From: a virus
DNA: 64,000 bases
IMG/VR virus record: IMGVR_UViG_3300031470_000033
Span: 14,222-78,221 of that record
Direction: 5' to 3' (one strand)
A program made the position numbers and the translations under genes. The notes beneath the pieces were generated by a model, which was not told where the DNA came from, made no database searches, and saw only the letters and a list, made by a program, of their open reading frames with translations. Below are positions 4,234 through 24,092 of the stretch, in pieces (the stretch's first letter is position 1; each line of letters begins with the position of its first letter).

Positions 4234-5454
4234 CTAGGCGCCCGCAAACTTCAAGGCGCTGAAATATTTGAATCCAGCCATGGCAAGCGAGAAGCTCCAG
4301 CCCAGCAAAATGTCGTCATGTGTCAACAAATACTCATCGGCGCTGCCGCCGTTGATGCCCTGGCGCTGCGGGATATTGCGCCACAGGGTGGGGCGCAGGC
4401 CCTTGCCGCGCTGCGTAATGTACATCAGGGGGCCGGCGTCGGCGCGCGGCAGGATGTAGTACGCGGTCGGGTTGGTCAGATAGCGCTCCAGGACCAGTTG
4501 CAGGAGGGGCTGCAAGATGGTCTGTCGCAGCGGGCTCTCGTTGCCGAGCGTCGTAATGGGGTTCGCTGTGCCGGCGGCAATCAGCACCGTACTGTTGAGG
4601 ATCTGTGCGGCCTGCTGCGCGAGGCTAGCGGGCACGACCAGATACTTGGCCGGCTCGTTCATCGGCACGCCCGACGGGTTGAGGTCGGGGTCGCCCGTGA
4701 AGGAGTTGACGGCGGCGAGGCCCGCCTGGATGTTGTTGGGGGAGAGCGCCGAGGCGGCGCCGGAGATGAGGTTGCCGGTGAGGCCACCCATCTGGGCGCT
4801 GGCGCGCGAGGCCGAGAAAATGGGCAGACCGTCATAGGTCAGGGGATTGCCTTCCAACCCGCTGCGAACCACGATTTTGTTGATAGTCCTATCAACGGCG
4901 TTGGTCATGCGGCCAGGCATCGAGTTCAGGAACTGGAGGTCGTCGTTCTCGATGACCTGGAAGGGCAGCGAGATGTAGCGGCCCCACTTCTTCAGAGAGA
5001 ACTGCAAGGTCTTGTCCGAAAGCGCGGAATCGCGGTAATCGCTCTCCTGGAAGATTTGCAGCGCGTCTTCCAACTGGGCCGGGAAGACGATGGTATTGAC
5101 CTTGAAGTTGATGACCTGCTCTTCGTGCGCGTAGGTCTTGAAGGCCGGGTCGTACTGCTTGAACCAGTCATCCAGGCGGCGGTACATCAGGTTGGCCATC
5201 AGGCCGGGCAAGTCCGATGTGCTGGCAGACTCACGAACCACGGCCGCATCAATTGAGTTGCCGTTGGCGTCGTGCGCGGTGGTCTCGCGGATGACGCTGG
5301 ACTGATGGTCATAGTCAATCGGCGAGAGACCCTGCGACTCGCGGGCGCGGCCTAGGGCGATACCGAACTCCTTGAGTGGCATGGACCCCAGGCGCGTCAA
5401 ATCGACGCCAGGGATGGCCGGGAAGGCGGGGACGGTGTTGGTGGCAGTAGCCAT
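4234..5454 (-). CDS. Major capsid protein (HK97 fold, Mu gpT-like)
   Basis: STSDLPGLMAN, KKWGRYISLPFQVIENDDL, DGLPIFS..GNL, KYLVVP motifs; RBS before ATG 5454; N-terminal ~90 aa look like a cleavable extension. Confidence 0.9.
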   Translation of the reverse strand: MATATNTVPAFPAIPGVDLTRLGSMPLKEFGIALGRARESQGLSPIDYDHQSSVIRETTAHDANGNSIDAAVVRESASTSDLPGLMANLMYRRLDDWFKQYDPAFKTYAHEEQVINFKVNTIVFPAQLEDALQIFQESDYRDSALSDKTLQFSLKKWGRYISLPFQVIENDDLQFLNSMPGRMTNAVDRTINKIVVRSGLEGNPLTYDGLPIFSASRASAQMGGLTGNLISGAASALSPNNIQAGLAAVNSFTGDPDLNPSGVPMNEPAKYLVVPASLAQQAAQILNSTVLIAAGTANPITTLGNESPLRQTILQPLLQLVLERYLTNPTAYYILPRADAGPLMYITQRGKGLRPTLWRNIPQRQGINGGSADEYLLTHDDILLGWSFSLAMAGFKYFSALKFAGA

Positions 5455-5598
5455 TGCTGTCGTTCCTCTAGTGGTGTTACGGCCGCACCACAAAAGAGGA
5501 GCGGCAGGGGAAGGGTGAAACGCGAGAGATAGACGGAAAGCGATAGACAGAGGGCGCGCAGCGGACGCGCGCGCGCTGTATGGACGCGACTGCGGGGG

Positions 5599-8642: not shown

Positions 8643-11423
8643 CTACAGTGTGCTGTATTTATTGGCATGATGACTGATAGGCCCTGTATATGGAGCGTCC
8701 TTGCGCTTTTCGCGGAACTCATCCAACCTATCAGCAATCAACCCTATGCGATGATTTGCTTCATGCATGACGCGCTTTTGTTCGATATGCTCAGGGCCCC
8801 CATGTTTACCCTTCGCCTCTAGCGCGATCATCTTATTGGTGGCTTTTTGATGCACATCACGCAATCCGTCATGGTCACGGCGTAAAGACATCTCATCGCG
8901 CATAGGCAAGTAGTCTGTCGGATAGTGAGGCGTCGCATACAGCACGCGGTCCGTCTTGGCATTTAAGGGACCATCAGCATGCGCGACCCGCGCAAGAGCA
9001 TGGGCGGGTGTTGTTTCAACAGAGGCAGGCTTACTGCCCGCGCTCATCGCTTTCAACCGCTCCATCCGCTCGGCGTCGCTCTTGCTCCGCTCGGTGTCAT
9101 CAGCCGCCTTCTGCACAGCCCGTCTGTCCTGGTCTGCGCCCGCCTCAGACCGCGCCGCCTCGCTCTTTTTTAAGAAGTCGGCGTACTCGCGCTTGGTCTT
9201 GTCGGCGTAGGATTCAGGGGCAGTCCCCGTTGCCTGTCCCGCTGCCTGGGGAGTTGCGTAAGCTGACGTATGCGTCGCATCGCGTCCCGCATCCCGCGCC
9301 GCGTAGTCGGTCGGGCCATGCGCAGCCGTCGCGGCCATCGCAACGCGCGTCTTGGCTGCAAAGTCGTCTTGCTTCCCCTGTTCCGTCGCTTGGGGGGATC
9401 TGTAGGGCGTGGACAGTGACACATCTAGATTCTTAGATACGCGCGGCACATCCCATCGTTGCGGAAACCCGATGGGATGCTTTCCCGCTGTGAGATGCGT
9501 GTCCCGGCTGCCGTTCGTCCTATCAATCGCGTTCAGGAGTGGGTGCGTCGCCTCAATGGCATGGTGCAGCGCCGCCCCATGCTCGTCTACTTGCGCCTGC
9601 AACTTGTGCGGTGTGAACATCGAGTCAGATGGATTGTTCAGCGCATGTTGCAGTAGAGGGATAGTGCGGTGAATTGTCTGGAGATGGGCTTTCTGCTCAG
9701 GTGTCACCGTATCCGAGTCCATCGCCCGATAGGCTAGGTCGCGCAGGTCATGCTGGCCCTGATCGCCGTGTAACAACTGCTGATAGTGGTTAACATCCTC
9801 GTGGCGCGGCTTGTCTATAGCCTTCGGTGCGGTGACAGCATCGGCGGGGACACGTTTTAATTCGTCAGCCGTCGGCGCAGTGTTCCACTCTGGCTCAGGA
9901 ACATTCTTGAAGTCGATGCCCTGTGCCGCTAGATGTCGTTTGTTTGTTTTGAGCAAGCGATGAGCCTGCCGCGCCTCAAACTGACTAAGTTCAGGCTTCG
10001 CCAAGAGGTCTTGCGCTCGCTTTGCATCGGCCCTGGAGAGACTTGGGCCGGACGCCAACGCTTGAAGAGCATGGCGTACCGCATGACGAGCAGTATTGTG
10101 AGGGGCATCGCCCTTAGTCTCGGCCTTCGGCGCGTCCTGGGGCTTCTCAGCCGCTGTGGGCGCGTCTTTGGCGTCAGCCATCTGACGTAACCGCCTGGCT
10201 GCTTCCTCTAGAACGCGCTGCGGATGTGAGGGGACAATTCCCGCTTTTGCCATGCGTTCTTTGGCATCCGGTGTGTGCTGACTCTCTAAATTGCCAGCCA
10301 CATAGCGCATCTCATCAGGCGTTTTGCCACTATGCTGCGCGACAAGCGCCTTTGTCCGGTCTTCCCATGCCGCGCCTTCAACAGATGTCGCACGCGCACC
10401 GCGCTCATCATCGCTGACCCGTGGCGTGTCATAGGCGGGTTTCCTGGAATGCGCGGCTTGCTTTGCATGAACGCGCGTCACGTCGGCGCGCTGCGGGTCG
10501 TTCATCGCTTTGCCACGAGCAACCGCAGCCTCGGTCATGCGACGAGCGCCTGCCCGCATTGCCTCTTTGTCCTGCGCTTCTTTGCGCGCGTCAGCCACCT
10601 TTGTCGCAGTCGCGTCGGGCAACTGGGGCTTGGCATAGGGTTGAGCATTGCGGGTAACGCTGCCGCGCGCCTTGTGCTCGGGCGACAGGCGCGTACGGGC
10701 TTCGTTATTAGCCCATCGCTCAGCCTCACCGGCATGGCTTGTATCGGCATCAATATGTGCTTTTACATCGGGGTGCTGACTGAGCACCTGCTGCTTGTGC
10801 TTCTCAAACTCAGCAGTCGCCGCCACGTCGCGCGGGTCAGCATCGCCCGATGATGCAGGCGCGGCTGTCGCCGTGCTCTCCGCACGCGCCTTCGCCAGCC
10901 CCGCCTCAGCCTGCTCCTTCGTCAGCGGCTCCGGCCCCTCTTGCGCGCTGTGAGCCTCTGGCTCCGAGGCTGACGTGCCCTGTGCACCCTGTGCGCCGCT
11001 CTCAGGAGCTTTGCCCTGGTCCGCGCCATGCAGGCGCGCGTAGGGCTTGCCAGAACTCTTGACGCCCTCTTGCTGACCCTCTTGCTTGGTGACGGGCGCT
11101 GTAGGGGTGGGCTTATGCTCGGCGTAGGACGGGTGCTCTTTCGCGCCGGGAGGGGTGTGGTCTACGGGGTGATGCTTAATAGAGTGGGGACCATTGCTGA
11201 GATTGTTGAGTGAGGCTCCTATCAGAGACTTTGGGCCTTTGGTGACAATGCCCTTGCTGCCGCCCGAACCTGAGATGAACAAATGGACACCGCCGCCGTC
11301 ACCGTCTTCGTCGCCTCCCGCGGTGACCCAATGGCCTGCCGTGCTATTGAACTCGCGCACGACAGCAGCCACGGGCGCGGTGTAGCGCGACAGAAAGGCA
11401 GTGGGGCTCATCGGTATCTCCAA
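8643..11423 (-). CDS. Large (926 aa) charged, Ala-rich protein; probable head-packaged/ejected protein
   Basis: Between portal and protease; N-terminal VVREF..HWVT..G.H.FI.G.G..TKGPKSLIG; no recognisable enzyme motif. Confidence 0.5.
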   Translation of the reverse strand: MEIPMSPTAFLSRYTAPVAAVVREFNSTAGHWVTAGGDEDGDGGGVHLFISGSGGSKGIVTKGPKSLIGASLNNLSNGPHSIKHHPVDHTPPGAKEHPSYAEHKPTPTAPVTKQEGQQEGVKSSGKPYARLHGADQGKAPESGAQGAQGTSASEPEAHSAQEGPEPLTKEQAEAGLAKARAESTATAAPASSGDADPRDVAATAEFEKHKQQVLSQHPDVKAHIDADTSHAGEAERWANNEARTRLSPEHKARGSVTRNAQPYAKPQLPDATATKVADARKEAQDKEAMRAGARRMTEAAVARGKAMNDPQRADVTRVHAKQAAHSRKPAYDTPRVSDDERGARATSVEGAAWEDRTKALVAQHSGKTPDEMRYVAGNLESQHTPDAKERMAKAGIVPSHPQRVLEEAARRLRQMADAKDAPTAAEKPQDAPKAETKGDAPHNTARHAVRHALQALASGPSLSRADAKRAQDLLAKPELSQFEARQAHRLLKTNKRHLAAQGIDFKNVPEPEWNTAPTADELKRVPADAVTAPKAIDKPRHEDVNHYQQLLHGDQGQHDLRDLAYRAMDSDTVTPEQKAHLQTIHRTIPLLQHALNNPSDSMFTPHKLQAQVDEHGAALHHAIEATHPLLNAIDRTNGSRDTHLTAGKHPIGFPQRWDVPRVSKNLDVSLSTPYRSPQATEQGKQDDFAAKTRVAMAATAAHGPTDYAARDAGRDATHTSAYATPQAAGQATGTAPESYADKTKREYADFLKKSEAARSEAGADQDRRAVQKAADDTERSKSDAERMERLKAMSAGSKPASVETTPAHALARVAHADGPLNAKTDRVLYATPHYPTDYLPMRDEMSLRRDHDGLRDVHQKATNKMIALEAKGKHGGPEHIEQKRVMHEANHRIGLIADRLDEFREKRKDAPYTGPISHHANKYSTL

Positions 11424-11458: not shown

Positions 11459-11704
11459 TCAGGGGCGCGGTTCAACGGTCGGCGCGATGACGCGCCCGCA
11501 GCGCCGGCAGTACAGGTGCAGACCACGGTTGTCGCCGTTGGGGTCGAAGCCCGCCGCGTGCCACTCGTGCGCGCAGGCGTTCGACAACACAGGAGCTTCG
11601 TCGACGTAAGGTAGGCGCTCAAAGTCTAGCCTTTTCGTCGGCACGTAGCCGTGGCCCGTGTAGACGCCCTGGGGTGTCGTGTCGTCATCGTCGTCGTGGC
11701 TCAT
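11459..11704 (-). CDS. Small Cys/His protein (C.H.W...CRRC), possible zinc binder
   Basis: GGAGA RBS before ATG 11704; 81 aa. Confidence 0.5.
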   Translation of the reverse strand: MSHDDDDDTTPQGVYTGHGYVPTKRLDFERLPYVDEAPVLSNACAHEWHAAGFDPNGDNRGLHLYCRRCGRVIAPTVEPRP

Positions 11705-11875: not shown

Positions 11876-12118
11876 TCACCCCGTCACAGCGAATGTGTTA
11901 TCTTCCACACTCGCATCAGGCGCACCGTCGCCAAGCGCCGGGCCCGTGTCAATCCCCAACGCCGCATTCCCACAATCGGTCAACCATTGCGCCTGCGTGC
12001 GACCATCGGGCGGGGTCTCGGGATAGCTGAACTGAGCGGCGGGCGTGGTCCCGTTCGTGGTGATGACGACGACGATGCCGCTGCCGGTATCGCTCGTGGA
12101 CAGGATGCTCGCGGCCAT
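11876..12118 (-). CDS. Small hypothetical protein
   Basis: Start overlaps stop of the upstream gene (TAATG coupling). Confidence 0.5.
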   Translation of the reverse strand: MAASILSTSDTGSGIVVVITTNGTTPAAQFSYPETPPDGRTQAQWLTDCGNAALGIDTGPALGDGAPDASVEDNTFAVTG

Positions 12119-12345
12119 CAGCGCGCCCCCAATATATACGCCGTCGCGTTCGGCCCCTTGGGCGTCACGCTATCGACGAGCGCGGTCGCCGCCGCCTGCA
12201 TCGCCGCCTGCGACGTGGGCAGGTCGGCGAGACCAGGCAACACAACGTTGCGGAAGCGCGGCACAACCACCTTGCCCGACGGGTGCAAGACGGTGATGTG
12301 AAAATGCCCGCCGATGGTCGCGGTGTTTGTCACGGTGGATGGCAT
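12118..12345 (-). CDS. Small hypothetical protein
   Basis: GGAG RBS; translationally coupled to next gene. Confidence 0.5.
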   Translation of the reverse strand: MPSTVTNTATIGGHFHITVLHPSGKVVVPRFRNVVLPGLADLPTSQAAMQAAATALVDSVTPKGPNATAYILGAR

Positions 12346-12366
12346 TAACGTCTCCCTGACCGTCGC

Positions 12367-12909
12367 TCATAGAATTAGTGCGCCTGCCAGCGAGTACGAC
12401 CAACTAGAGGCGTCGTTATGGGTCGCGCTCGCCGTCCACACGCGGGGCAACACGCCATTTTGCGCGAGCGTTAATCCACCAAGGGCAGCGGCCGTATTAG
12501 GGAATCCGGGATAGAGCGCATAGGTATAAAGCCCATTGGCGCTATTCGCCGTGGCGCCGGCGGCCACGGCGGGGGTTGTGAGCAGGTTAACAACCGCCAT
12601 ACCAGTCACGGGTTCTATCGCTCGAATTGCGACCGTCAGCGTGGACGTTGCCACCGCAGGCGATGCCGTCACATTGAGAAACAGCATCACCCCTCGGTGA
12701 TTTAAGCACGCCTGGGTGGCGATAGGAGGCGTGCTCGTGCGTGTGCCGGCGACGACGAGGACAAATTGAATGTTGTTCAATGCCAGGTCTGTGCCCGTGC
12801 CGTTGTTGTAGGTCATGCCCTGTTCGGGCACTTCGCCGAGCGGGGTGCCCTCAACGCGGACGGATGTGCCGCCGTAGGCTAGGTCAGTGCGTTCGCTCAT
12901 CGGCGACAT
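12367..12909 (-). CDS. Beta-rich hypothetical virion protein
   Basis: Thr/Ala/Val-rich 180 aa, GGAGG RBS; in head gene region. Confidence 0.5.
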   Translation of the reverse strand: MSPMSERTDLAYGGTSVRVEGTPLGEVPEQGMTYNNGTGTDLALNNIQFVLVVAGTRTSTPPIATQACLNHRGVMLFLNVTASPAVATSTLTVAIRAIEPVTGMAVVNLLTTPAVAAGATANSANGLYTYALYPGFPNTAAALGGLTLAQNGVLPRVWTASATHNDASSWSYSLAGALIL

Positions 12910-13124
12910 CCTCCAACGGGGCTAGGGTTTGCCGCTCATGCCGCCACTCGGCGTCCGGGCGCGATATACTATGGATGAGCGCAGTGTGCATACACGCGTG
13001 GCAGATGGCTACGGCCGCTGCCCCCTTAGCGGACGTACGTCCGCTCCTCTCGCATGAGAGGGCCTTGTGGAGAATGGCCCGCCTTTATGGCGGGCCTTCT
13101 CGTTGTCATCGCGCTACCGGCTCT

Positions 13125-13970
13125 TTAGAAAGGCAACCGTAACTGCTCAAGTTCCGGAAGATGCGACTTACGCCGACCGTTTTGTCTTTCTCGCTGCGAC
13201 TGCGAGAGTTTGGCCCGATGCTCTGCCGTCAGGGGCCGGCCGGTTTTGGCGCGTATGGACGCAGCGCGACACGCCTCTGGCATGCACCCAGGGGTTGCTC
13301 GCGCCTTCGACGCTGCTGACAGTTTCGCACGTGTCTCAGGCGATATCGTGTGGGTTTCTGCCCATTTGCGTTTCGCCTGGGACATGCGCTCTCGGACCTC
13401 AGGCGTAAAGAAGCGTTCGCGTTCACCGTCACGAGCCCAACGTTTACGCGCGGCAGCGCCGAGTTTCTCGCGCAATTCAGGGGAGCGCACTCCTGCATCC
13501 AGCCATCTGCGCTGACCCTCATGTAGGCGTTTTATCTGTTCAGGAGACTGGGCTTTCCCTTTGTGTGCAAGAGAGAGCTTGCGACGTGTCTCCTCAGACT
13601 TCACATGACCCGTCGCGCCATGTCCACCGTTTGTAGCATTGGTCAAGGGAAGACCGCGCTGGCGCGCTTCCGCAATATAAGCAATCTCGGCTACATTGGC
13701 ATCGGGGAGAGGAACCCATAGGAGAACACGTAAGACGGCCCATTCGCCATGCGCCAGAAGCGAACGTATCCAGTCGTTCTTATGGGTCTTAGTGCAAAGG
13801 AGACGCGGGTTATGATGCTCGCGAATCCTGTACGGCGGGTTTACTGCCTGCCCAATGTACCGGATTTGTCCGTCAGGAGCACATAAGCAATAAATAGCCG
13901 TTTCCCCGGGGCAGGGTTGCGGATTGAGGTTAGCATCGAAGTCAAGGGGGTACACTAAGGGCAGAGACAT
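13125..13970 (-). CDS. GIY-YIG homing endonuclease with NUMOD3-like repeats
   Basis: AIYCL...RYIGQ...RIREH...E..YI...LTN catalytic set; repeated H.KSEETRRKLS / ISPETRAKLS / LTAEHRAKLS units. Confidence 0.85.
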   Translation of the reverse strand: MSLPLVYPLDFDANLNPQPCPGETAIYCLCAPDGQIRYIGQAVNPPYRIREHHNPRLLCTKTHKNDWIRSLLAHGEWAVLRVLLWVPLPDANVAEIAYIAEARQRGLPLTNATNGGHGATGHVKSEETRRKLSLAHKGKAQSPEQIKRLHEGQRRWLDAGVRSPELREKLGAAARKRWARDGERERFFTPEVRERMSQAKRKWAETHTISPETRAKLSAASKARATPGCMPEACRAASIRAKTGRPLTAEHRAKLSQSQRERQNGRRKSHLPELEQLRLPF

Positions 13971-14049
13971 GGCAGGCTCCTATCTGCTATCGTCTTTAGG
14001 GGCGTGTTGGTGCTTGCTACACCGTGCGCCCCGCTCCCTTAATTATACC

Positions 14050-16131
14050 TCACATCGGCTTTCTACTTTGCCCGCCGCTCGGTGTCTTGGCGCTCGATGA
14101 GGGCGCTTGCGCGCCCATCGTCGCCGCTTCAGCGTGGGTCTTGGCGACCTGCGCGTCAACCAGCGCCCCGTGCTGGTCCGTCTTTTGCTGGTCCTGCGTC
14201 GCCTTCTGTTGCGCGGCCTGTTGCTGCTGCTCTTTCTCTTCGTTGGCTTGATCCAGGGCATCATTATGCTGTTCCAGGCGCAGGTCTACAGCTTGCTCCC
14301 AGTCGGTCATGGCATCGCTCACGTCGTCTACATTGAATAATTCATACGCCATACGTGCGGCTTGTTCCTGGGTGATGTATCCACCTTTGGCCGCCGTATC
14401 CACAGCTTGTATGGATGCGGGAATGTCGCGGGCTAGGATTTTGGGCATGGACACGTCATAGCCACCGCGTGATTTATTGGCCTTGCTCTTTTGCGCGTCG
14501 GCGCGACGCTTGCCCGTCATCACCGTCGGCATAACGGGGGCAGGTGGCAACGGGGATACATCAGATGGTGCGGGCATGGGCATGTCCGCCTCTTTCACCG
14601 GCGCGGCCTCGGCGTTGACCGCCTGCACGGGCGTCCCATCCAACCGCACCTTGTCGGGCGCAGGCTCTGCTCTATCCCAGTCAATCATCTCGTGGCCGTG
14701 CCGGTAGACGACGGGCGCTATGATGCGTTTGGCCTTAGCAGCCTGTGTCAGCGCGTAGTCAATCAGCGCACGTAGCAGGTCACGCCACGCGCTCTGGCGA
14801 TCCTCGTACATCTTGAGGACGGGCAACTCCATGGCGACCGCCGTCGCCAGCCTGCTCGTTTCCGTGGACATGAGGATGTAGTGCGTGGGCAACCCGAACG
14901 CCGTGCCGACCATTTGGGCCAGCGCCTCAAGGTCCTGCGTTGCGCCCGCCGCGCCTGTGTCGAACTTGGGGAAGTCGATATCGACGCCCTGGCTCTTGGT
15001 ATAGACCTGCGCCACGCCCGTCGGGTTGCGCTCCAGGCCCCGCCATGGGCTCGTGGCCATGGACGACCGTTCGAGCGCGGCTGACGCCTGCACCTGCTGC
15101 GGACCACCCTTGACGGTCTTGATCATGCTGATTTTGGCGAGCGCCTGCATAATCATCACGCGGGCGTCCATGAAGCGCTTGTGCTCCACGACCCACACCA
15201 CCGCCGCCGCCATGTCCGGTATACCCCTGAGCCCGCCAATCCTATTGACGGGGAAGTGCGCCATCACCGCGCCGTCAGGGGCGCGCTTGAAGCCGCGCTT
15301 CTCGCGGTACGGGTCGCGGTCCCCCTCGTCACTCTCCTCGGGAGGGGCGACATTCCGCCAGTCGGGATAGTACACGTAGTCAGCCTGATCGGCCATCGGC
15401 AACGGTTGCCCGTTGCCGAAGTCATACGCCTGGTCCATCGTCTGCACGCGGTAGTACAGCGGGCGGCGTCTATCTTCGGGGTGCGGCACGATGTCAGCCA
15501 CGCGCATCGTATCGACGGTGCGCCACTTACAATGGCCGTCGTCAGCGACGGCCACGACCACAAAGATTTCGCCCGCGATGCGCTGCTGCCTATCAGTCTC
15601 TTTCTGCCCCTCGTGCGTCGCAAACTCAAAATTGTCAGGGTCGTCCCAACAGTCTGAGATGACCGCCTGCACGTCCGCGTCCGACGACACGGGCATGGGA
15701 ATGCCCTGCCCAATGACGTAGCTTGTGCCCAGCCTCAGCGCGTTGTGGACGGGCGGCGAGGCGATCGCCAGGTTGCGGCCCATACCGACGTACTGGCGGC
15801 GCTGGCCTGGTTGGAGGTCAACGGCCAGTTGGGGGTCTTGCTGCCCGCCCTGCCCCCACTCATACAGACCGTTCAGTTGCAGGTCGATGTCAGGGTTAGA
15901 GTTCGAAAGAAACGACGTGACCTCACGAATTATGCACAATTCTGCCCCATCGTAGTCCCCCGCCTCCAGCGCCGCCATCGCATCAGGGAAGTTTTGCCGC
16001 GCCTCTTTGACGATAGGGTCGGCCTCAATCTGCTCGCGCACCGCAGCGGCGTAGATTTCGGCCTCGGAGAGGGGACGTGTGTCCTCAACATCGGTGCCTG
16101 TCAGCGTGGGGTAGGCTGGCATCGGCAACAC
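14050..16131 (-). CDS. Portal protein
   Basis: 693 aa downstream of terminase; GEIF, H..VN...G.RG..D, QMVGTAFGLPTHY...ATAVAMELP...RQ..W motifs; probable start ATG 16122. Confidence 0.85.
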   Translation of the reverse strand: MLPMPAYPTLTGTDVEDTRPLSEAEIYAAAVREQIEADPIVKEARQNFPDAMAALEAGDYDGAELCIIREVTSFLSNSNPDIDLQLNGLYEWGQGGQQDPQLAVDLQPGQRRQYVGMGRNLAIASPPVHNALRLGTSYVIGQGIPMPVSSDADVQAVISDCWDDPDNFEFATHEGQKETDRQQRIAGEIFVVVAVADDGHCKWRTVDTMRVADIVPHPEDRRRPLYYRVQTMDQAYDFGNGQPLPMADQADYVYYPDWRNVAPPEESDEGDRDPYREKRGFKRAPDGAVMAHFPVNRIGGLRGIPDMAAAVVWVVEHKRFMDARVMIMQALAKISMIKTVKGGPQQVQASAALERSSMATSPWRGLERNPTGVAQVYTKSQGVDIDFPKFDTGAAGATQDLEALAQMVGTAFGLPTHYILMSTETSRLATAVAMELPVLKMYEDRQSAWRDLLRALIDYALTQAAKAKRIIAPVVYRHGHEMIDWDRAEPAPDKVRLDGTPVQAVNAEAAPVKEADMPMPAPSDVSPLPPAPVMPTVMTGKRRADAQKSKANKSRGGYDVSMPKILARDIPASIQAVDTAAKGGYITQEQAARMAYELFNVDDVSDAMTDWEQAVDLRLEQHNDALDQANEEKEQQQQAAQQKATQDQQKTDQHGALVDAQVAKTHAEAATMGAQAPSSSAKTPSGGQSRKPM

Positions 16132-16171
16132 GTCCTATCGTCTTAATGCGCGATACTGAGAGCGGGAGGAT

Positions 16172-16444
16172 ATGGACATGAAAGATAGACACACAGGGAC
16201 GCCCTGCACCGTCATTGGCTGGTGCGACCGCTCAGGGCCAGATGGCACACCGTTCACGCGCCTGCTTGCCACGCCACTCACTGGCAAGATACGAACAGTC
16301 AGCGATGACGGACGCCCTATCGGTGTTGTCTTTGATGACATAGACGCAGCACGCGCTGTCATGCCGATTGAGGCCGACAAAATTGTGACATGGAACAGAC
16401 AGAAGTCAGCACTGATTAAGAACGTAAGCAATGGCCATGACTGA
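16172..16444 (+). CDS. Hypothetical protein (antisense to late operon)
   Basis: GGGAGG RBS before ATG; fills an otherwise empty gap. Confidence 0.5.
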   Translation: MDMKDRHTGTPCTVIGWCDRSGPDGTPFTRLLATPLTGKIRTVSDDGRPIGVVFDDIDAARAVMPIEADKIVTWNRQKSALIKNVSNGHD

Positions 16445-16685
16445 GACAGATAGACGATGCGCCGTATGTGACACACCCCTTACATCGGACGCGCACTACT
16501 TAACCAGCGTCATTGCCACAGAGCAAGATGGCGACACAGGCGACGCCTATCTCTATGCCTGCGAGAAGCATGGATGGGACGCCCTCAATGCACGCGTGAA
16601 CGCATTACCGCGCGACGACGATGACTGGATGATTGTGCCGGGCTACAGGCGCTCAGGAGGCGCATACGCGCCGCTAACGTCGTAG
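16431..16685 (+). CDS. Small acidic CxxC...CxxH protein (antisense to late operon)
   Basis: Overlaps upstream plus-strand gene; CAVC and CEKH motifs. Confidence 0.5.
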   Translation: MAMTETDRRCAVCDTPLTSDAHYLTSVIATEQDGDTGDAYLYACEKHGWDALNARVNALPRDDDDWMIVPGYRRSGGAYAPLTS

Positions 16686-16946
16686 GTAATGGTCGCACTC
16701 GCTAATGGGCACACAGACCGCCTTGGCCTCGGGCACATGCCAGCGCGTGCTGCCGTTCGACATGACACGGGCGCCGGGCGCGAACACATACTCCGTGTCG
16801 GTGGTCGCCACCAGCACACCGTCAATGGTCGTGCCCGCCTTGGTAATCATCCAGACCGTGTAGACGCGGCGTGCGTCTATAGGATCACCAGAGGCGGCCA
16901 TAGCCTCACGGAGAAGCCAGCGGGTGGCGCGATGGACGATGCTCAT
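16674..16946 (-). CDS. Small hypothetical protein
   Basis: ATGA-type overlap with upstream gene. Confidence 0.5.
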   Translation of the reverse strand: MSIVHRATRWLLREAMAASGDPIDARRVYTVWMITKAGTTIDGVLVATTDTEYVFAPGARVMSNGSTRWHVPEAKAVCVPISECDHYLRR

Positions 16947-17824
16947 GGCTGATGGGCCACCATCTTGACAGCATTGCGCGTGGCGACAGGGGTGGCGCTG
17001 AACTCCATGCCCACTTGCATCATCAATGGCGCATCTGTCTCAATCTCGGCAGCGTCTTTGGACTGGACGCGTCGGAATGAAAACGCCAATCCTTCAGGTC
17101 GTCGCGTGGTCACATGCACCGGGCTTTTATCGGGCGTTGGCAGTAGGAACCATTCGTTCGGACGGCGCAAAGACTTCTCGCACACCACCTGCACGATAGG
17201 GCGCAGCATCAATGAACGGCGCGCATCGCGTGCGTACCTCTCATCAACTGAGTTGCCCGTCCCACTAGCAATCAAAACCGTCGCATTAAGCAATTGCGCC
17301 GCCTCTTGCGCGAGGGCAGGCGGGACAATGAGATAAACCGCTGTGCCCCGAAGATGGTCAAGTCCGTCGAGTATCGCCTCGTGCGTCAGTGCCGCGCCCG
17401 ACCCTTCAATAACATTGCCGCGCTCAACGGCAAAAGCGGGCAGGCCATCATCCGCAAGAGCGTGACCCTCAAACACGGCGCGTATCTGCGCGGCAACCGT
17501 GCGCTCCATCATGCCTATCACTTTGTAGGGAATGCCGCGCAGAAAGCCTTGGTCATCGTTATCCAGCACGGCACGCGGGATCGTGATGATGCGCCCCCAT
17601 TGCGTGAGTGGCGTCTCCGTATCAGGAGGGGTAGGCGCGCTATCGGGAGAGGTCGTGTGATGCGCGTACATGCGCCATGCAGCTTCCGTGTTGTACTGCG
17701 TAGCCCAAGCAGCCATCTCACGATACACCGAGGCGCAATAGCCGTCGGCCCACGCGTCGAAGCCTAGCCTGGCTATCTGCTCAGTCAACGGTCGTGTGTC
17801 ACTCGGATCGAAAACGACACCCAT
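16943..17824 (-). CDS. Divergent paralog of the major capsid protein
   Basis: Colinear motifs with MCP: QWGRIITIPRAVLDNDD vs KWGRYISLPFQVIENDD; DGLPAF..GN vs DGLPIF..GN; YLIVPPALAQEAAQLLNATVLIASGT vs YLVVPASLAQQAAQILNSTVLIAAGT; strong GGGGGAGG RBS. Confidence 0.85.
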   Translation of the reverse strand: MGVVFDPSDTRPLTEQIARLGFDAWADGYCASVYREMAAWATQYNTEAAWRMYAHHTTSPDSAPTPPDTETPLTQWGRIITIPRAVLDNDDQGFLRGIPYKVIGMMERTVAAQIRAVFEGHALADDGLPAFAVERGNVIEGSGAALTHEAILDGLDHLRGTAVYLIVPPALAQEAAQLLNATVLIASGTGNSVDERYARDARRSLMLRPIVQVVCEKSLRRPNEWFLLPTPDKSPVHVTTRRPEGLAFSFRRVQSKDAAEIETDAPLMMQVGMEFSATPVATRNAVKMVAHQP

Positions 17825-17852
17825 TCCTCCCCCTTACTAACGCCGCTCACAC

Positions 17853-19502
17853 CTAGTAGCGCGAGTCGGTTGTCCAGCCTGGCCCGTCCGCGTTGCCTGC
17901 GTACGGGTTAGCGCCGTACGGGTCGTTCATGCCATCGACGCCGTAGCGGTCGTCCACGGTGTGCGCTGAAACGCCGAGTTGGTCGGCAAGACTCACCAAC
18001 TCAGCAGCGGGCGGTGCAAACAAACGCGCCTGTTCACAGATAGCCGCGGCCATGACGATATCATCGTGATTATTGCCAGAGGCTTCGGTACTGCCATTCT
18101 CGTTGCGAATGTAGGTCCGCGCCTCACGGATAGTGGCGCGGTTACGCCATGGACGCAATTGGGTGAACGTTTCCCCCAGCGCGTCTATCAGAATAGCTTT
18201 TGTGCGGGAATTGGTCGGATAGCCATACCGCTCAGTCGCGCCCGTGGCGTCGTAATCCATGTGAGCGTAGAGATTGGGATAGTCTTGAATGCTCATCAAC
18301 GCCAGGAGCACAGCGGGGCCAGGTGTATTGCGCTCGACCGCAAGGTACGCGTTATTGTAGAACGCGCCCAGCGTAGCTAACTGCGTCGCAAACTCTTGGG
18401 GGGTGGCATGGTTGTGGAGTGTGGCGACATCCAGGCCCGTATGGTAGTCCATCACCACAGCGGCGCTATAGTCGCCCTTCAACAACCCTTCGGCTGTATC
18501 CGCGCCAATCACGTAGCGCCCCATCTCGGTCGGCTCGGCCCATATCTCAAGGTCGCCGTTCCACATGGTACGGATAGGGTCCGTGCATTGAGCGAGGATG
18601 GTATCAAGTGCCGCGATGTCAAAGCGTGGGCGGCCTGACAAGATAAACGCCTCTTCGGGCGTCGTGGGCAGCTCCTGTGCAATCTGCCAACTGGAGTAGC
18701 CACGCGTCGCCCCCTCATACCACGCCTGGTCCCGCCCCGGCCGCACATGCCACGGCAGGAACGTGGGGTGCATCCCCTCACCGTTAATGGCGAGGTCCCA
18801 TTGGCGTGCAAAGAAATTACCCGCGCCGTTCGCCGTAGACAGGGCAACAATCTTGTTACCGCCCGAGCGTGCGGCCGGTGACGCCGCTGTGTAGACAATA
18901 TCAGACCACATCATATGCGCCATCTCATCAAGGATGAGCACCTGCGCGTTGAAGGAACGGCCAGCGCCTGGCGAGGTCGGCTTGGGGATGATACGGCTGC
19001 GGTTCGTCAACTTGAGCGTGGACGTAATGTTCGGGTTAATGACCGGCACCTTCACGTCGTCGGGCAGGTAGTCGTAGGCGATGCGGCACTTTGACAGGAC
19101 TTCGTTCGCGGCGTCCTGATCCTTCGATAGAATGATGATGGTCCAGGCCGGGAACGTGATCGCGCAATACACGGCGATAGCCGCGACCGTCTCGGTCATG
19201 CCCAACTGCCGCGCCTTGAGGATGATGTTCTCGCGGTACAGCCAAAAGGAGCGGATGAACTCTTCCTGGTAGGGAAAGAGTTTGAAGGGAATAACGCCTT
19301 GACCACGGTCGCCGAGCAGTTTGCAGTACGCATTAATCCACGCGATGCAGTGGTCCGCGCGCTCGTCGGGCGTCAGTTCGGCTTTAGGCGTCGTCTGTGC
19401 GCGGCGGCGCATCTCCATGAGAGCTTCCGCTCGCAACTGCAAGGGGGTCTTCCCCAGCGGCGATGCGTGCGAGCTGGTCATCGGTGAGGGTGGATACATC
19501 AA
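17853..19502 (-). CDS. terL: Terminase large subunit
   Basis: IILKARQLGMT Walker A, LILDEMAH Walker B, STANG coupling motif, VIGADTAEG..GDYS and HDDIVMA nuclease motifs; exact start uncertain. Confidence 0.95.
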   Translation of the reverse strand: MMYPPSPMTSSHASPLGKTPLQLRAEALMEMRRRAQTTPKAELTPDERADHCIAWINAYCKLLGDRGQGVIPFKLFPYQEEFIRSFWLYRENIILKARQLGMTETVAAIAVYCAITFPAWTIIILSKDQDAANEVLSKCRIAYDYLPDDVKVPVINPNITSTLKLTNRSRIIPKPTSPGAGRSFNAQVLILDEMAHMMWSDIVYTAASPAARSGGNKIVALSTANGAGNFFARQWDLAINGEGMHPTFLPWHVRPGRDQAWYEGATRGYSSWQIAQELPTTPEEAFILSGRPRFDIAALDTILAQCTDPIRTMWNGDLEIWAEPTEMGRYVIGADTAEGLLKGDYSAAVVMDYHTGLDVATLHNHATPQEFATQLATLGAFYNNAYLAVERNTPGPAVLLALMSIQDYPNLYAHMDYDATGATERYGYPTNSRTKAILIDALGETFTQLRPWRNRATIREARTYIRNENGSTEASGNNHDDIVMAAAICEQARLFAPPAAELVSLADQLGVSAHTVDDRYGVDGMNDPYGANPYAGNADGPGWTTDSRY

Positions 19503-19887
19503 TGTTCACGTTTGCCTGAATAACTGTCTTATCGAGCCCAAGCATCTTCCGACGTTCCTTCGAGACGGCTAAGGCCACGGCGATGGACTGTACGTCGCCA
19601 TACTCGGCTCTCGTTGAAAGGGCGCGCAGCATACTATCGTAGCGCGCCAACTCTATATCGACGTAGGCCCCGGCCTCGGCGGCTTTCTCAGCCTGCACGA
19701 GCGCGAGCACGGCAGCGAGATCCTGACGTATTTGCTCGTGACTCACGCCGAGTTGAGCGCCAATGTCACGCAAAGACCAGCCGCAGCGGCGCATCTCCCA
19801 CGCGTCGTGCTGACGCGTGGCGACCTTCTCAGCCGTGCCAGGGGGGTGATTTTGTTTCCGCGCCATTGTCAACCTGCTATATGTCAA
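19384..19887 (-). CDS. terS: Terminase small subunit
   Basis: N-terminal HTH (RRCGWSLRDIGAQLGVSHEQI), coiled region, RRKMLGLD motif; directly upstream of and overlapping terL; possible start 19866. Confidence 0.75.
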   Translation of the reverse strand: MTYSRLTMARKQNHPPGTAEKVATRQHDAWEMRRCGWSLRDIGAQLGVSHEQIRQDLAAVLALVQAEKAAEAGAYVDIELARYDSMLRALSTRAEYGDVQSIAVALAVSKERRKMLGLDKTVIQANVNIDVSTLTDDQLARIAAGEDPLAVASGSSHGDAPPRTDDA

Positions 19888-20294
19888 GTGGTTTTGCGTT
19901 CTTCAAAGTGCAGCCGCCCGAGGGGAGCCGTTTAACGGCTCCCCCCCATCCACAACGCCACAGGGCGAACGGCGGCTTATGGTTCAGCGCACGCCATACC
20001 CCTGCGCCTGCCTCTGTTGGGCAAGCGAGAGCGGGACTCTAACTCCCACGAGCGGCGCACGCTGTGTTTGGAAGCAGGCTGCGGGCGCCGTTGTCCCGCG
20101 CTGAAAGGAGGGCAGCGCGGCGGTCGCCCGCTCATGCAATGCAGCCAGTCGCAGATTGATGTGGCTTAACGCGCCGCAAACCACGGGGTTTTAACCCCGG
20201 TGGGTAGGCGCGATGTCCATCTCAGCCGCGCGCAGGCGGTCGCTCGTCCCATCCTCATCCGTGCCCGTCTCGGGGTCAGGCGTGTCGCCCACGC

Positions 20295-23287: not shown

Positions 23288-23536
23288 TTATCGTACGACC
23301 TCATGGCCGTGTTCACTTAGGGCGATGATATAGGGCGTCTTCGGGTTTACCCTGTCCGACAACCGCTCGCGTTTCGGTTTCACCGCGTCGATATGCATCG
23401 TCACGAGTGGCTCACCGCAGGCGGAACACTCGACGTGGTAGGCCGCACCATCACGCGCCGCACCCTCGATCTCGGCAAGGGCTATAGGGAGCGCCACGTT
23501 ACGGCAGTAATCGCAATAGAGCCTAATGTACAACAC
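23288..23536 (-). CDS. Small zinc-ribbon protein
   Basis: CDYC and CSAC pairs. Confidence 0.5.
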   Translation of the reverse strand: MLYIRLYCDYCRNVALPIALAEIEGAARDGAAYHVECSACGEPLVTMHIDAVKPKRERLSDRVNPKTPYIIALSEHGHEVVR

Positions 23537-23582
23537 GGTGTGTCCTCCTTGCTATCGACCCCGCCTCGCTCCGCACCAGGCG

Positions 23583-24092
23583 TTAGCGGGGCGTGTCCGT
23601 CCGCTCGCCCCCGGCGCGGGCCTCGGTCAGCCCGCGCTCGGCCTCAACCTGTCGCGCCACGGCCTCAGCCTCCCGCACGACGGATGCGGGCGCGCGTTCA
23701 TGCCGCGCCTGCCAGCGCGCCCAGAGCCCCAGGACATCGCGCCTGGCAAACACGAGCCCGCCCAGCGCGCCCAGAAAGCACACAGCGGCGGGCGCGACAG
23801 TTGCGCCGTACCCGAGGGCAGACAGCGCGCAGCCACATCCGAGCGCCACGGCAAGGAGGAACCACAGCAGGTCGCCATCCGCGCGCGTCAGACCCAATCG
23901 CCGCATCGTTTCGCCCATAGCCGCGTGCCCATCCGCTAGGATGTCGCGCAGCATCACGGGCAGTACCCAGCGCACAAAAGGACGCGGCTCTCCGCTTTGA
24001 CGCGTCCACCGCGCCCGTCGCGCGCGTCTGCGGAACATCATCCGCGCCTGTCGTTGCCGTACCTGTCGCATAGTATCACTCTCCTTCATCAC
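23583..24092 (-). CDS. Membrane protein, last gene of conjugation cluster
   Basis: Two hydrophobic segments; 6 nt from upstream VirB6-like gene. Confidence 0.55.
   Translation of the reverse strand: MMKESDTMRQVRQRQARMMFRRRARRARWTRQSGEPRPFVRWVLPVMLRDILADGHAAMGETMRRLGLTRADGDLLWFLLAVALGCGCALSALGYGATVAPAAVCFLGALGGLVFARRDVLGLWARWQARHERAPASVVREAEAVARQVEAERGLTEARAGGERTDTPR

Follow-up and report, generated by a model that had tools for sequence, protein, structure and literature searches.

The window analysed here is a 64,000-nucleotide stretch of a virus record in IMG/VR that is 81.6 kb long and estimated to be 73% complete. An initial annotation had placed a second capsid-fold gene at positions 16943–17824, between the terminase and portal genes, and a capsid-like gene, here called P0001, is indeed present there. 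It runs on the minus strand, where it encodes 293 amino acids from an ATG start; the frame on the plus strand over the same interval is full of stops. The genes read in the order TerL (17853–19502; PF03237, phrog_2), P0001, orf90 (16674–16946) and portal (14050–16131; phrog_10963), all on the minus strand. TerL is the upstream flank of the slot occupied by P0001. The downstream flank, orf90, is a conserved small gene of 90 residues with 81–83% amino-acid identity in relatives, and it too lies ahead of the portal gene.

Between the TerL stop codon and the P0001 ATG is a spacer of 28 bp (17825–17852, minus strand), which is near-identical in relatives that carry a 194-residue allele in the slot. 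The spacer holds the Shine–Dalgarno run AAGGGGGAGGA immediately 5′ of the ATG, in agreement with the strong ribosome-binding site described initially. At its other end, the P0001 stop codon overlaps the orf90 start in the sequence ATGA (16943–16946, minus strand), an arrangement for translational coupling that is conserved for all three alleles of the slot; a strong ribosome-binding site is likewise common to all of them. No promoter-like and no convincing terminator-like site was found between P0001 and its neighbours. Judged from its sequence context P0001 is part of the late head operon, since neither promoter nor terminator separates it from the adjoining genes and its ribosome-binding site and ATGA coupling are in place. 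GC3 is 0.64 in P0001 versus 0.85 in the gene for the phage's own MCP, whose codon bias sets it well above the other head genes (0.64–0.79). A value as low as that of P0001 would be expected of a gene under weak expression or weak constraint.

Sequence and predicted fold of the capsid paralogue

The MCP gene lies at 4234–5454 on the minus strand and encodes 406 residues from an ATG. Its frame is open upstream as far as a TTG at 5493, and database homologues begin at the ATG (M14). BLASTP aligned residues 33–246 of P0001 with residues 103–366 of the MCP, read from 4234–5493, at 32% identity (E = 2e-38). The alignment is colinear, as had been claimed, and is interrupted by gaps of 26 residues (the E-loop), 9 residues and 13 residues. 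Against the Pfam family PF25209 (Phage_capsid_4), which has a curated cut-off of 27 bits, P0001 scores 37.8 bits (E = 3.4e-9) and the MCP 76 bits, so that both proteins lie above it. The genome contains exactly two capsid-like genes, the MCP gene and P0001. Identity between the two proteins is uneven, reaching 51% in the A-domain core and only 12% in the C-terminal strands. P0001 keeps 23 of the 49 columns that are invariant among MCPs (conserved in at least 12 of 13); deletions alone account for the loss of another 13, and conservative replacements for several of the remainder. The phage genuinely carries its MCP gene a second time, in the form of P0001, an HK97-fold paralogue with the MCP as its parent.

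AlphaFold2, supplied with a 21-row alignment, returned a model of P0001 with a pLDDT of 84.5 and a pTM of 0.80. Foldseek searches of PDB and BFVD with this model matched HK97-fold capsids and encapsulins at a probability of 1.00, and P0001 is confidently predicted to fold as an HK97-type capsid protein. The N-arm, the spine helix, the P-domain sheet and the A-domain core are all kept. The losses were read from 13 MCPs aligned with the paralogues and from the models of P0001 and the MCP; in the alignment the deletions are clean and in frame, and fall at domain or loop boundaries.

At the N terminus, the prodomain of the MCP, an extension of roughly 90–100 residues with IRE/VRE sites, has no counterpart in P0001, and on this point the alignment upholds the initial annotation. 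In the alignment, P0001 begins some four residues ahead of the conserved mature start of the MCP (VVRE/SASTSDLPGL in the MCP, GVVFDPSDTRPLT in P0001). Its N-terminal sequence shows no hydrophobic signal segment. Its first 17 codons (17774–17824, minus strand), with the motif MGVVFDPSDTRPLTEQI, parallel this mature start. In the same region 16 of 21 residues are shared with the 189- and 194-residue proteins found in the slot of relatives, despite synonymous differences between the genes.

Of the E-loop only a stub is left. Residues 55–74 of P0001 (17603–17662, minus strand) stand in place of the hairpin and comprise a four-residue strand (55–58) followed by a disordered Pro/Thr linker, modelled as a 16-residue coil of low confidence (59–74); no extended β-hairpin was found in the model. 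The MCP segment that is absent from P0001 (4999–5130, minus strand; model residues about 109–152) is a hairpin with a helix insert, composed of strands 109–114, 120–124 and 148–152 and a helix at 137–142. The strings that the initial annotation had quoted for this exchange were located at 17659 (HTTSPDSAPTPPD), 5124 (EEQVINFKVN) and 5013 (KTLQFSLKK). The 26-residue gap and the two models agree that a short Pro/Thr linker has replaced the E-loop segment, and the structure prediction that had been proposed as a check returned an HK97-like protein with only a remnant of this loop. Two loops of the A domain are also deleted, one of them the GDPDLNPSG loop conserved in nearly all MCPs, as is a C-terminal P-domain loop with a GG motif. 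Prediction of a complex between the mature region of the MCP and P0001 gave a score of 0.28, against a mark of 0.32, and enters none of the arguments below in either direction.

A variable slot between TerL and the portal gene

The P0001 family is very small as judged by exhaustive sequence search, a phmmer run over 1.84 billion representatives having given 15 matches. In the phage GenBank collection, neither megablast with positions 12000–20000 nor tblastn with P0001 found a match; the MCP had only distant matches there, at most 30% identical, to capsids of the protease–MCP fusion type. A word-based protein search with P0001 returned only P0001 itself, and a pattern scan of IMG/VR with P0001 returned nothing. 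A metagenome scan with a TerL alignment gave one contig, G001, among the matches listed, and an IMG/VR scan with a portal alignment gave G001 only.

This closest phage (IMGVR_UViG_3300031460_000004, 32.9 kb) is 89–100% identical to the window in amino-acid sequence across most head and neck proteins, with values of 96% for the MCP and 95.5% for the portal protein. The exceptions are a 568-residue protein (79%), a 926-residue protein whose middle has diverged, and TerL (58%). P0001 is absent from the 32.9-kb fragment, in which 13 bp correspond to 889 bp of the window (16948–17836).

Other relatives have an occupied slot. The 293-residue gene is found in five further contigs from several samples with three nucleotide differences, two synonymous and one altering the last residue. 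This divergence, 3 of 882 nucleotides, is part of a near-identical recombination tract of about 1.66 kb that includes the 3′ part of TerL, and the proposal that P0001 is more conserved than its flanks was rejected on that ground. A 194-residue gene occupies exactly the same slot in seven contigs (L025, L026, L030–L033 and one more), and a 189-residue gene occupies it in L024. All versions share the N terminus MGVVF[DN]xxDTRPL. In the 189- and 194-residue proteins an N-arm, a shortened E-loop and the spine helix are followed by the C-terminal strands, the whole A domain being missing.

Slot alleles are 31–43% identical to one another, whereas their flanks are 82–93% identical. L025 matches the window at 93% in TerL, about 93% in the MCP and 82% in its orf90 homologue, and its slot protein is 31% identical to P0001 over the shared part; no further capsid-like gene was found in the L025 head module. 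In phages with an MCP 93–96% identical to that of the window, the portal protein is 74–96% identical and the slot is either empty or filled by the A-domain-less version. The 194-residue allele is 97% identical between L025 and L030 although their TerLs are only 59% identical, which links the slot gene, at the level of these sequences, to orf90 and portal and not to a TerL type; the candidate explanation that P0001 travels with its TerL type was rejected on this comparison. Alleles of the slot keep recurring in many independent metagenome samples. With a gene either present or absent, and with deeply diverged alleles set between conserved flanks, the slot is similar to accessory conflict loci.

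A tree of the segment from N-arm to spine helix, which leaves out the shared first 17 residues, groups P0001 with the 189- and 194-residue proteins (SH-aLRT 83), and the slot genes probably share a common origin. In a tree of the A domain P0001 falls on the MCP side, near the clade of its own MCP, on a branch of 1.63 against a median of 0.26. P0001 is optional, because close relatives carry either no version or a shorter one, and by its sequence relationships it is a cassette-like derivative of the MCP in a variable slot between TerL and orf90/portal.

Further capsid derivatives are encoded elsewhere in this group of phages. Proteins of 137–170 residues that consist of the A domain only (P0011, P0014, P0015 and P0017) lie downstream of the portal gene in relatives (L003:9058–9471, which is G001 23423–23836; L041:10001–10977; L038:787–2495; L039:1740–2177), singly, as a tandem pair (L041) or as the C terminus of a 324-residue protein (L038). 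They form a clade with support of 100/100 that is separate from the MCPs. The gene in G001 is a clean insertion of 527 bp at a point where the window has 16 bp (11460–11475). That the P-only and A-only proteins are the halves of one split gene was considered and rejected: L025 has a P-only gene alone and G001 an A-only gene alone, and the A-only clade lies apart from the A domain of P0001. In L027 (8924–9799), whose portal protein is 49% identical, a trimmed capsid-like protein of 291 residues (P0013) is encoded directly after the portal gene. The prodomain is missing from P0013, its E-loop is short and its branch very long. P0013 may be the MCP of that phage or another paralogue, the contig ending ahead of the usual MCP position.

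Several neighbouring regions of the head module are variable as well. TerL is a mosaic, 93% identical to that of L025 and 58–59% identical to those of G001 and L030, with neighbours at 82–97%; its mismatches to L034 are clustered in patches, with recombination break points inside the gene. Between orf90 and portal, the window has an insertion of 536 bp (16139–16675) relative to L034–L037, which have 37 bp there. It holds two overlapping plus-strand open reading frames, 16172–16444 (with a strong ribosome-binding site) and 16431–16685, neither of which has a Pfam or PADLOC match; PADLOC also gave no match for P0001, the 194-residue protein, the 137-residue protein or orf90. L025 and L030 have a different, 82-residue reverse-strand open reading frame at this site, making it a second variable slot. 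A GIY-YIG/NUMOD3 homing-endonuclease gene (13125–13970, minus strand; GC3 0.55) lies between portal and a gene of 180 residues; it is missing in G001 and L025, and portal and the 180-residue gene directly adjoin each other there. The 926-residue head-module protein (8643–11423, minus strand) is 93–98% identical to its G001 homologue at its ends, and its middle is replaced or diverged in both G001 and L025.

Selection and candidate roles

Conservation and dN/dS in related phages had been put forward as a check on the function of the gene. P0001 is kept intact in L034–L037; it is absent from G001 and represented by the A-domain-less version in others. No frameshift or internal stop was found in the window, in L034–L037 or in any 189- or 194-residue allele. 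P0001 and its nearest allele differ by two synonymous changes and one non-synonymous change, all within the near-identical recombination tract, and two 194-residue alleles differ by one synonymous and five non-synonymous changes (omega about 1.6, not significant). The long-term omega of 0.34–0.44 rests on saturated dS. In the flanks the ratio of synonymous to non-synonymous changes is 30:0 for TerL and, in comparison with L034, 17:1 for orf90. The N-terminal motif is conserved across synonymous differences.

These counts bear on whether the slot gene is merely decaying. An old MCP duplicate might have been whittled away, losing its prodomain, its loops, its A domain and in the end the whole gene, a course of events to which we give some weight but which we do not expect. 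It is equally a minority possibility that the frame has stayed open only since ribosomes must cross P0001 to reach the ATGA for orf90. The states of the slot can be laid out as a reduction series (293 residues, 189–194 residues, empty), and the coupling to orf90, kept in every allele, could hold a useless frame open. The excess of non-synonymous changes in the 194-residue pair, set against the ratios in the flanks, would suit decay, as would the very long branch of P0001 and its low GC3. However, the N-terminal peptide stays conserved where its codons differ synonymously, the columns that define the fold in MCPs are retained in spite of the long branch, with the A-domain core still 51% identical, and the deletions fall exactly at domain and loop boundaries. 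The confident fold prediction and the persistence of the alleles in many independent metagenome samples also speak against decay. Moreover, useless DNA is usually purged from phage genomes, and in G001 orf90 does without any such conduit.

A minor subunit of the capsid lattice is a very improbable identity for P0001. The initial annotation had proposed a vertex or size-control factor, useful if the genome carries extra cargo, and on this reading P0001 would be a penton protein like gp24 or a size determinant like Ccm that fits the capsid to a large genome with conjugation functions; TraG and TrbL Pfam matches are present in a relative, and L025 and related contigs have conjugation genes. P0001 is a full HK97 protein with P and A domains, is co-transcribed with the head genes and is closest to its own MCP, and known capsid paralogues do fill pentons (PMC8569155). 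Yet an essential penton or size protein would be expected wherever the same capsid and portal occur, and the slot varies, which makes the proposed role unlikely and a poor fit to phages whose MCPs are 93–96% identical. P0001 is absent from the G001 fragment despite the near-identity of the MCP and portal proteins, and in L025 and related contigs, with the same conjugation genes and near-identical head proteins, the A-domain-less homologue is present instead. In the HK97 fold the A domains make up the capsomer core, and because of this the A-domain-less homologues would be unable to occupy a capsomer position. P0001 also lacks both the prodomain and the E-loop, which gp24 and Ccm retain. We infer that P0001 is not a lattice subunit, whether penton, hexon or size determinant, because it has neither the module for recruitment to the procapsid nor the loop by which a subunit grips the next.

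The second role suggested initially, a dominant-negative poison of capsid assembly directed at co-infecting or superinfecting relatives, is weakened by the same comparisons and now looks improbable. Its supposed mode of action, in which the P domain would accept the E-loop of a neighbour and offer none in return, so terminating capsomer rings, has a correspondingly small chance of being correct. What remains of the idea is the architecture, which is that of a chain terminator with its acceptor surfaces kept and its donor loop lost, together with the presence or absence and deep allelic divergence expected of a conflict locus. Against it, the MCPs of carriers and non-carriers are 93–96% identical, so that the phage's own capsid would be struck, and no promoter of its own was found from which P0001 could be expressed in a lysogen. 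Nor could the A-domain-less alleles take up a similar position in a capsomer ring. With these points in hand we rate inhibition of rival assembly as a low-probability role for P0001.

The explanation that we favour, with a probability of about 45%, is that P0001 arose from the MCP of its own phage group as an accessory, optional protein and most likely acts as a soluble mimic of the mature MCP. In HK97-type shells, a subunit meets its neighbours, the prodomain or scaffold and also the portal through the surfaces of its N-arm, P domain and N terminus. A mature-MCP-like N terminus, the N-arm and the P domain are what all alleles retain, and it is this retention that makes a soluble MCP mimic the most likely reading. 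All of them have lost the recruiting prodomain, and P0001 also the clamping E-loop. P0001 would be translated together with the late head genes and would occupy a binding site meant for the MCP. One candidate site is on the MCP or on procapsid components, in which case assembly would be capped or modulated. The other is on a host or rival factor that recognizes the MCP, for which P0001 would serve as a decoy. Such a diversity of alleles in the slot would be less expected of a core structural role than of a function in conflict or one that is useful only under some conditions.

A broader proposal would have this phage group repeatedly turning pieces of the MCP into movable accessory genes that act as MCP mimics in conflicts, which is speculative and somewhat unlikely. 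That one such process spans P0001, with its P and A domains and no E-loop, the P-domain-only proteins of 189 and 194 residues, and the A-domain-only clade is likewise doubtful. The roles that these derivatives would play, as decoys or inhibitors of capsid-sensing host immunity or as weapons against the assembly of rivals, are suggested with the same reserve. If the proposal is true, capsid mimics would form a new class of capsid-derived genes for counter-defence or competition. If these capsid-derived proteins are functional, the phages have put the capsid fold to use outside the shell, possibly in phage–host or phage–phage conflict, and the allele series provides ready-made test constructs. 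If they are decaying, they would be an unusually clear case of translational coupling holding a dying gene open.

Comparison with known capsid proteins

P0001 resembles the MCPs of the Phage_capsid_4 or Mu gpT-like family (PF25209) in its profile match and in having an N-arm, a spine helix and both P and A domains. Its 293 residues are a typical length for members of the family that have no prodomain, and its relatives of solved structure, by sequence profile, are 9jod and 8rkc. It differs from the shell proteins of this family in that a separate MCP of 406 residues is present, its E-loop is a stub and further loops are deleted, and relatives dispense with it.

In phage T4, gp24 is a paralogue of gp23 and the vertex protein, filling the pentons of every particle; it keeps both its prodomain and its E-loop. 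Like gp24, P0001 is a diverged paralogue of the MCP within the same genome and would be expressed with the head genes. Unlike gp24, it has no prodomain, no protease site and no E-loop, and it is absent or truncated in phages where the same MCP occurs.

A literature search found no described MCP derivative that is trimmed by domains, dispensable and cassette-like. Ccm of SaPIbov5, a homologue of the MCP with 24% identity, forms pentons and has an N-arm, an E-loop and a delta domain that is cleaved; its gene belongs to a satellite, and the protein works against the helper phage (PMC8569155). P0001, at 32% identity, is similarly a low-identity homologue of the MCP and is not the main shell protein. 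It differs from Ccm in being encoded by the phage, inside the TerL–portal operon, and in having neither the delta domain nor the E-loop. The known extra capsid-fold genes, T4 gp24 and SaPI Ccm, encode whole shell subunits whose places in the lattice are fixed, whereas P0001 is trimmed at domain boundaries and behaves like a cassette that can be exchanged between phages with a common capsid.
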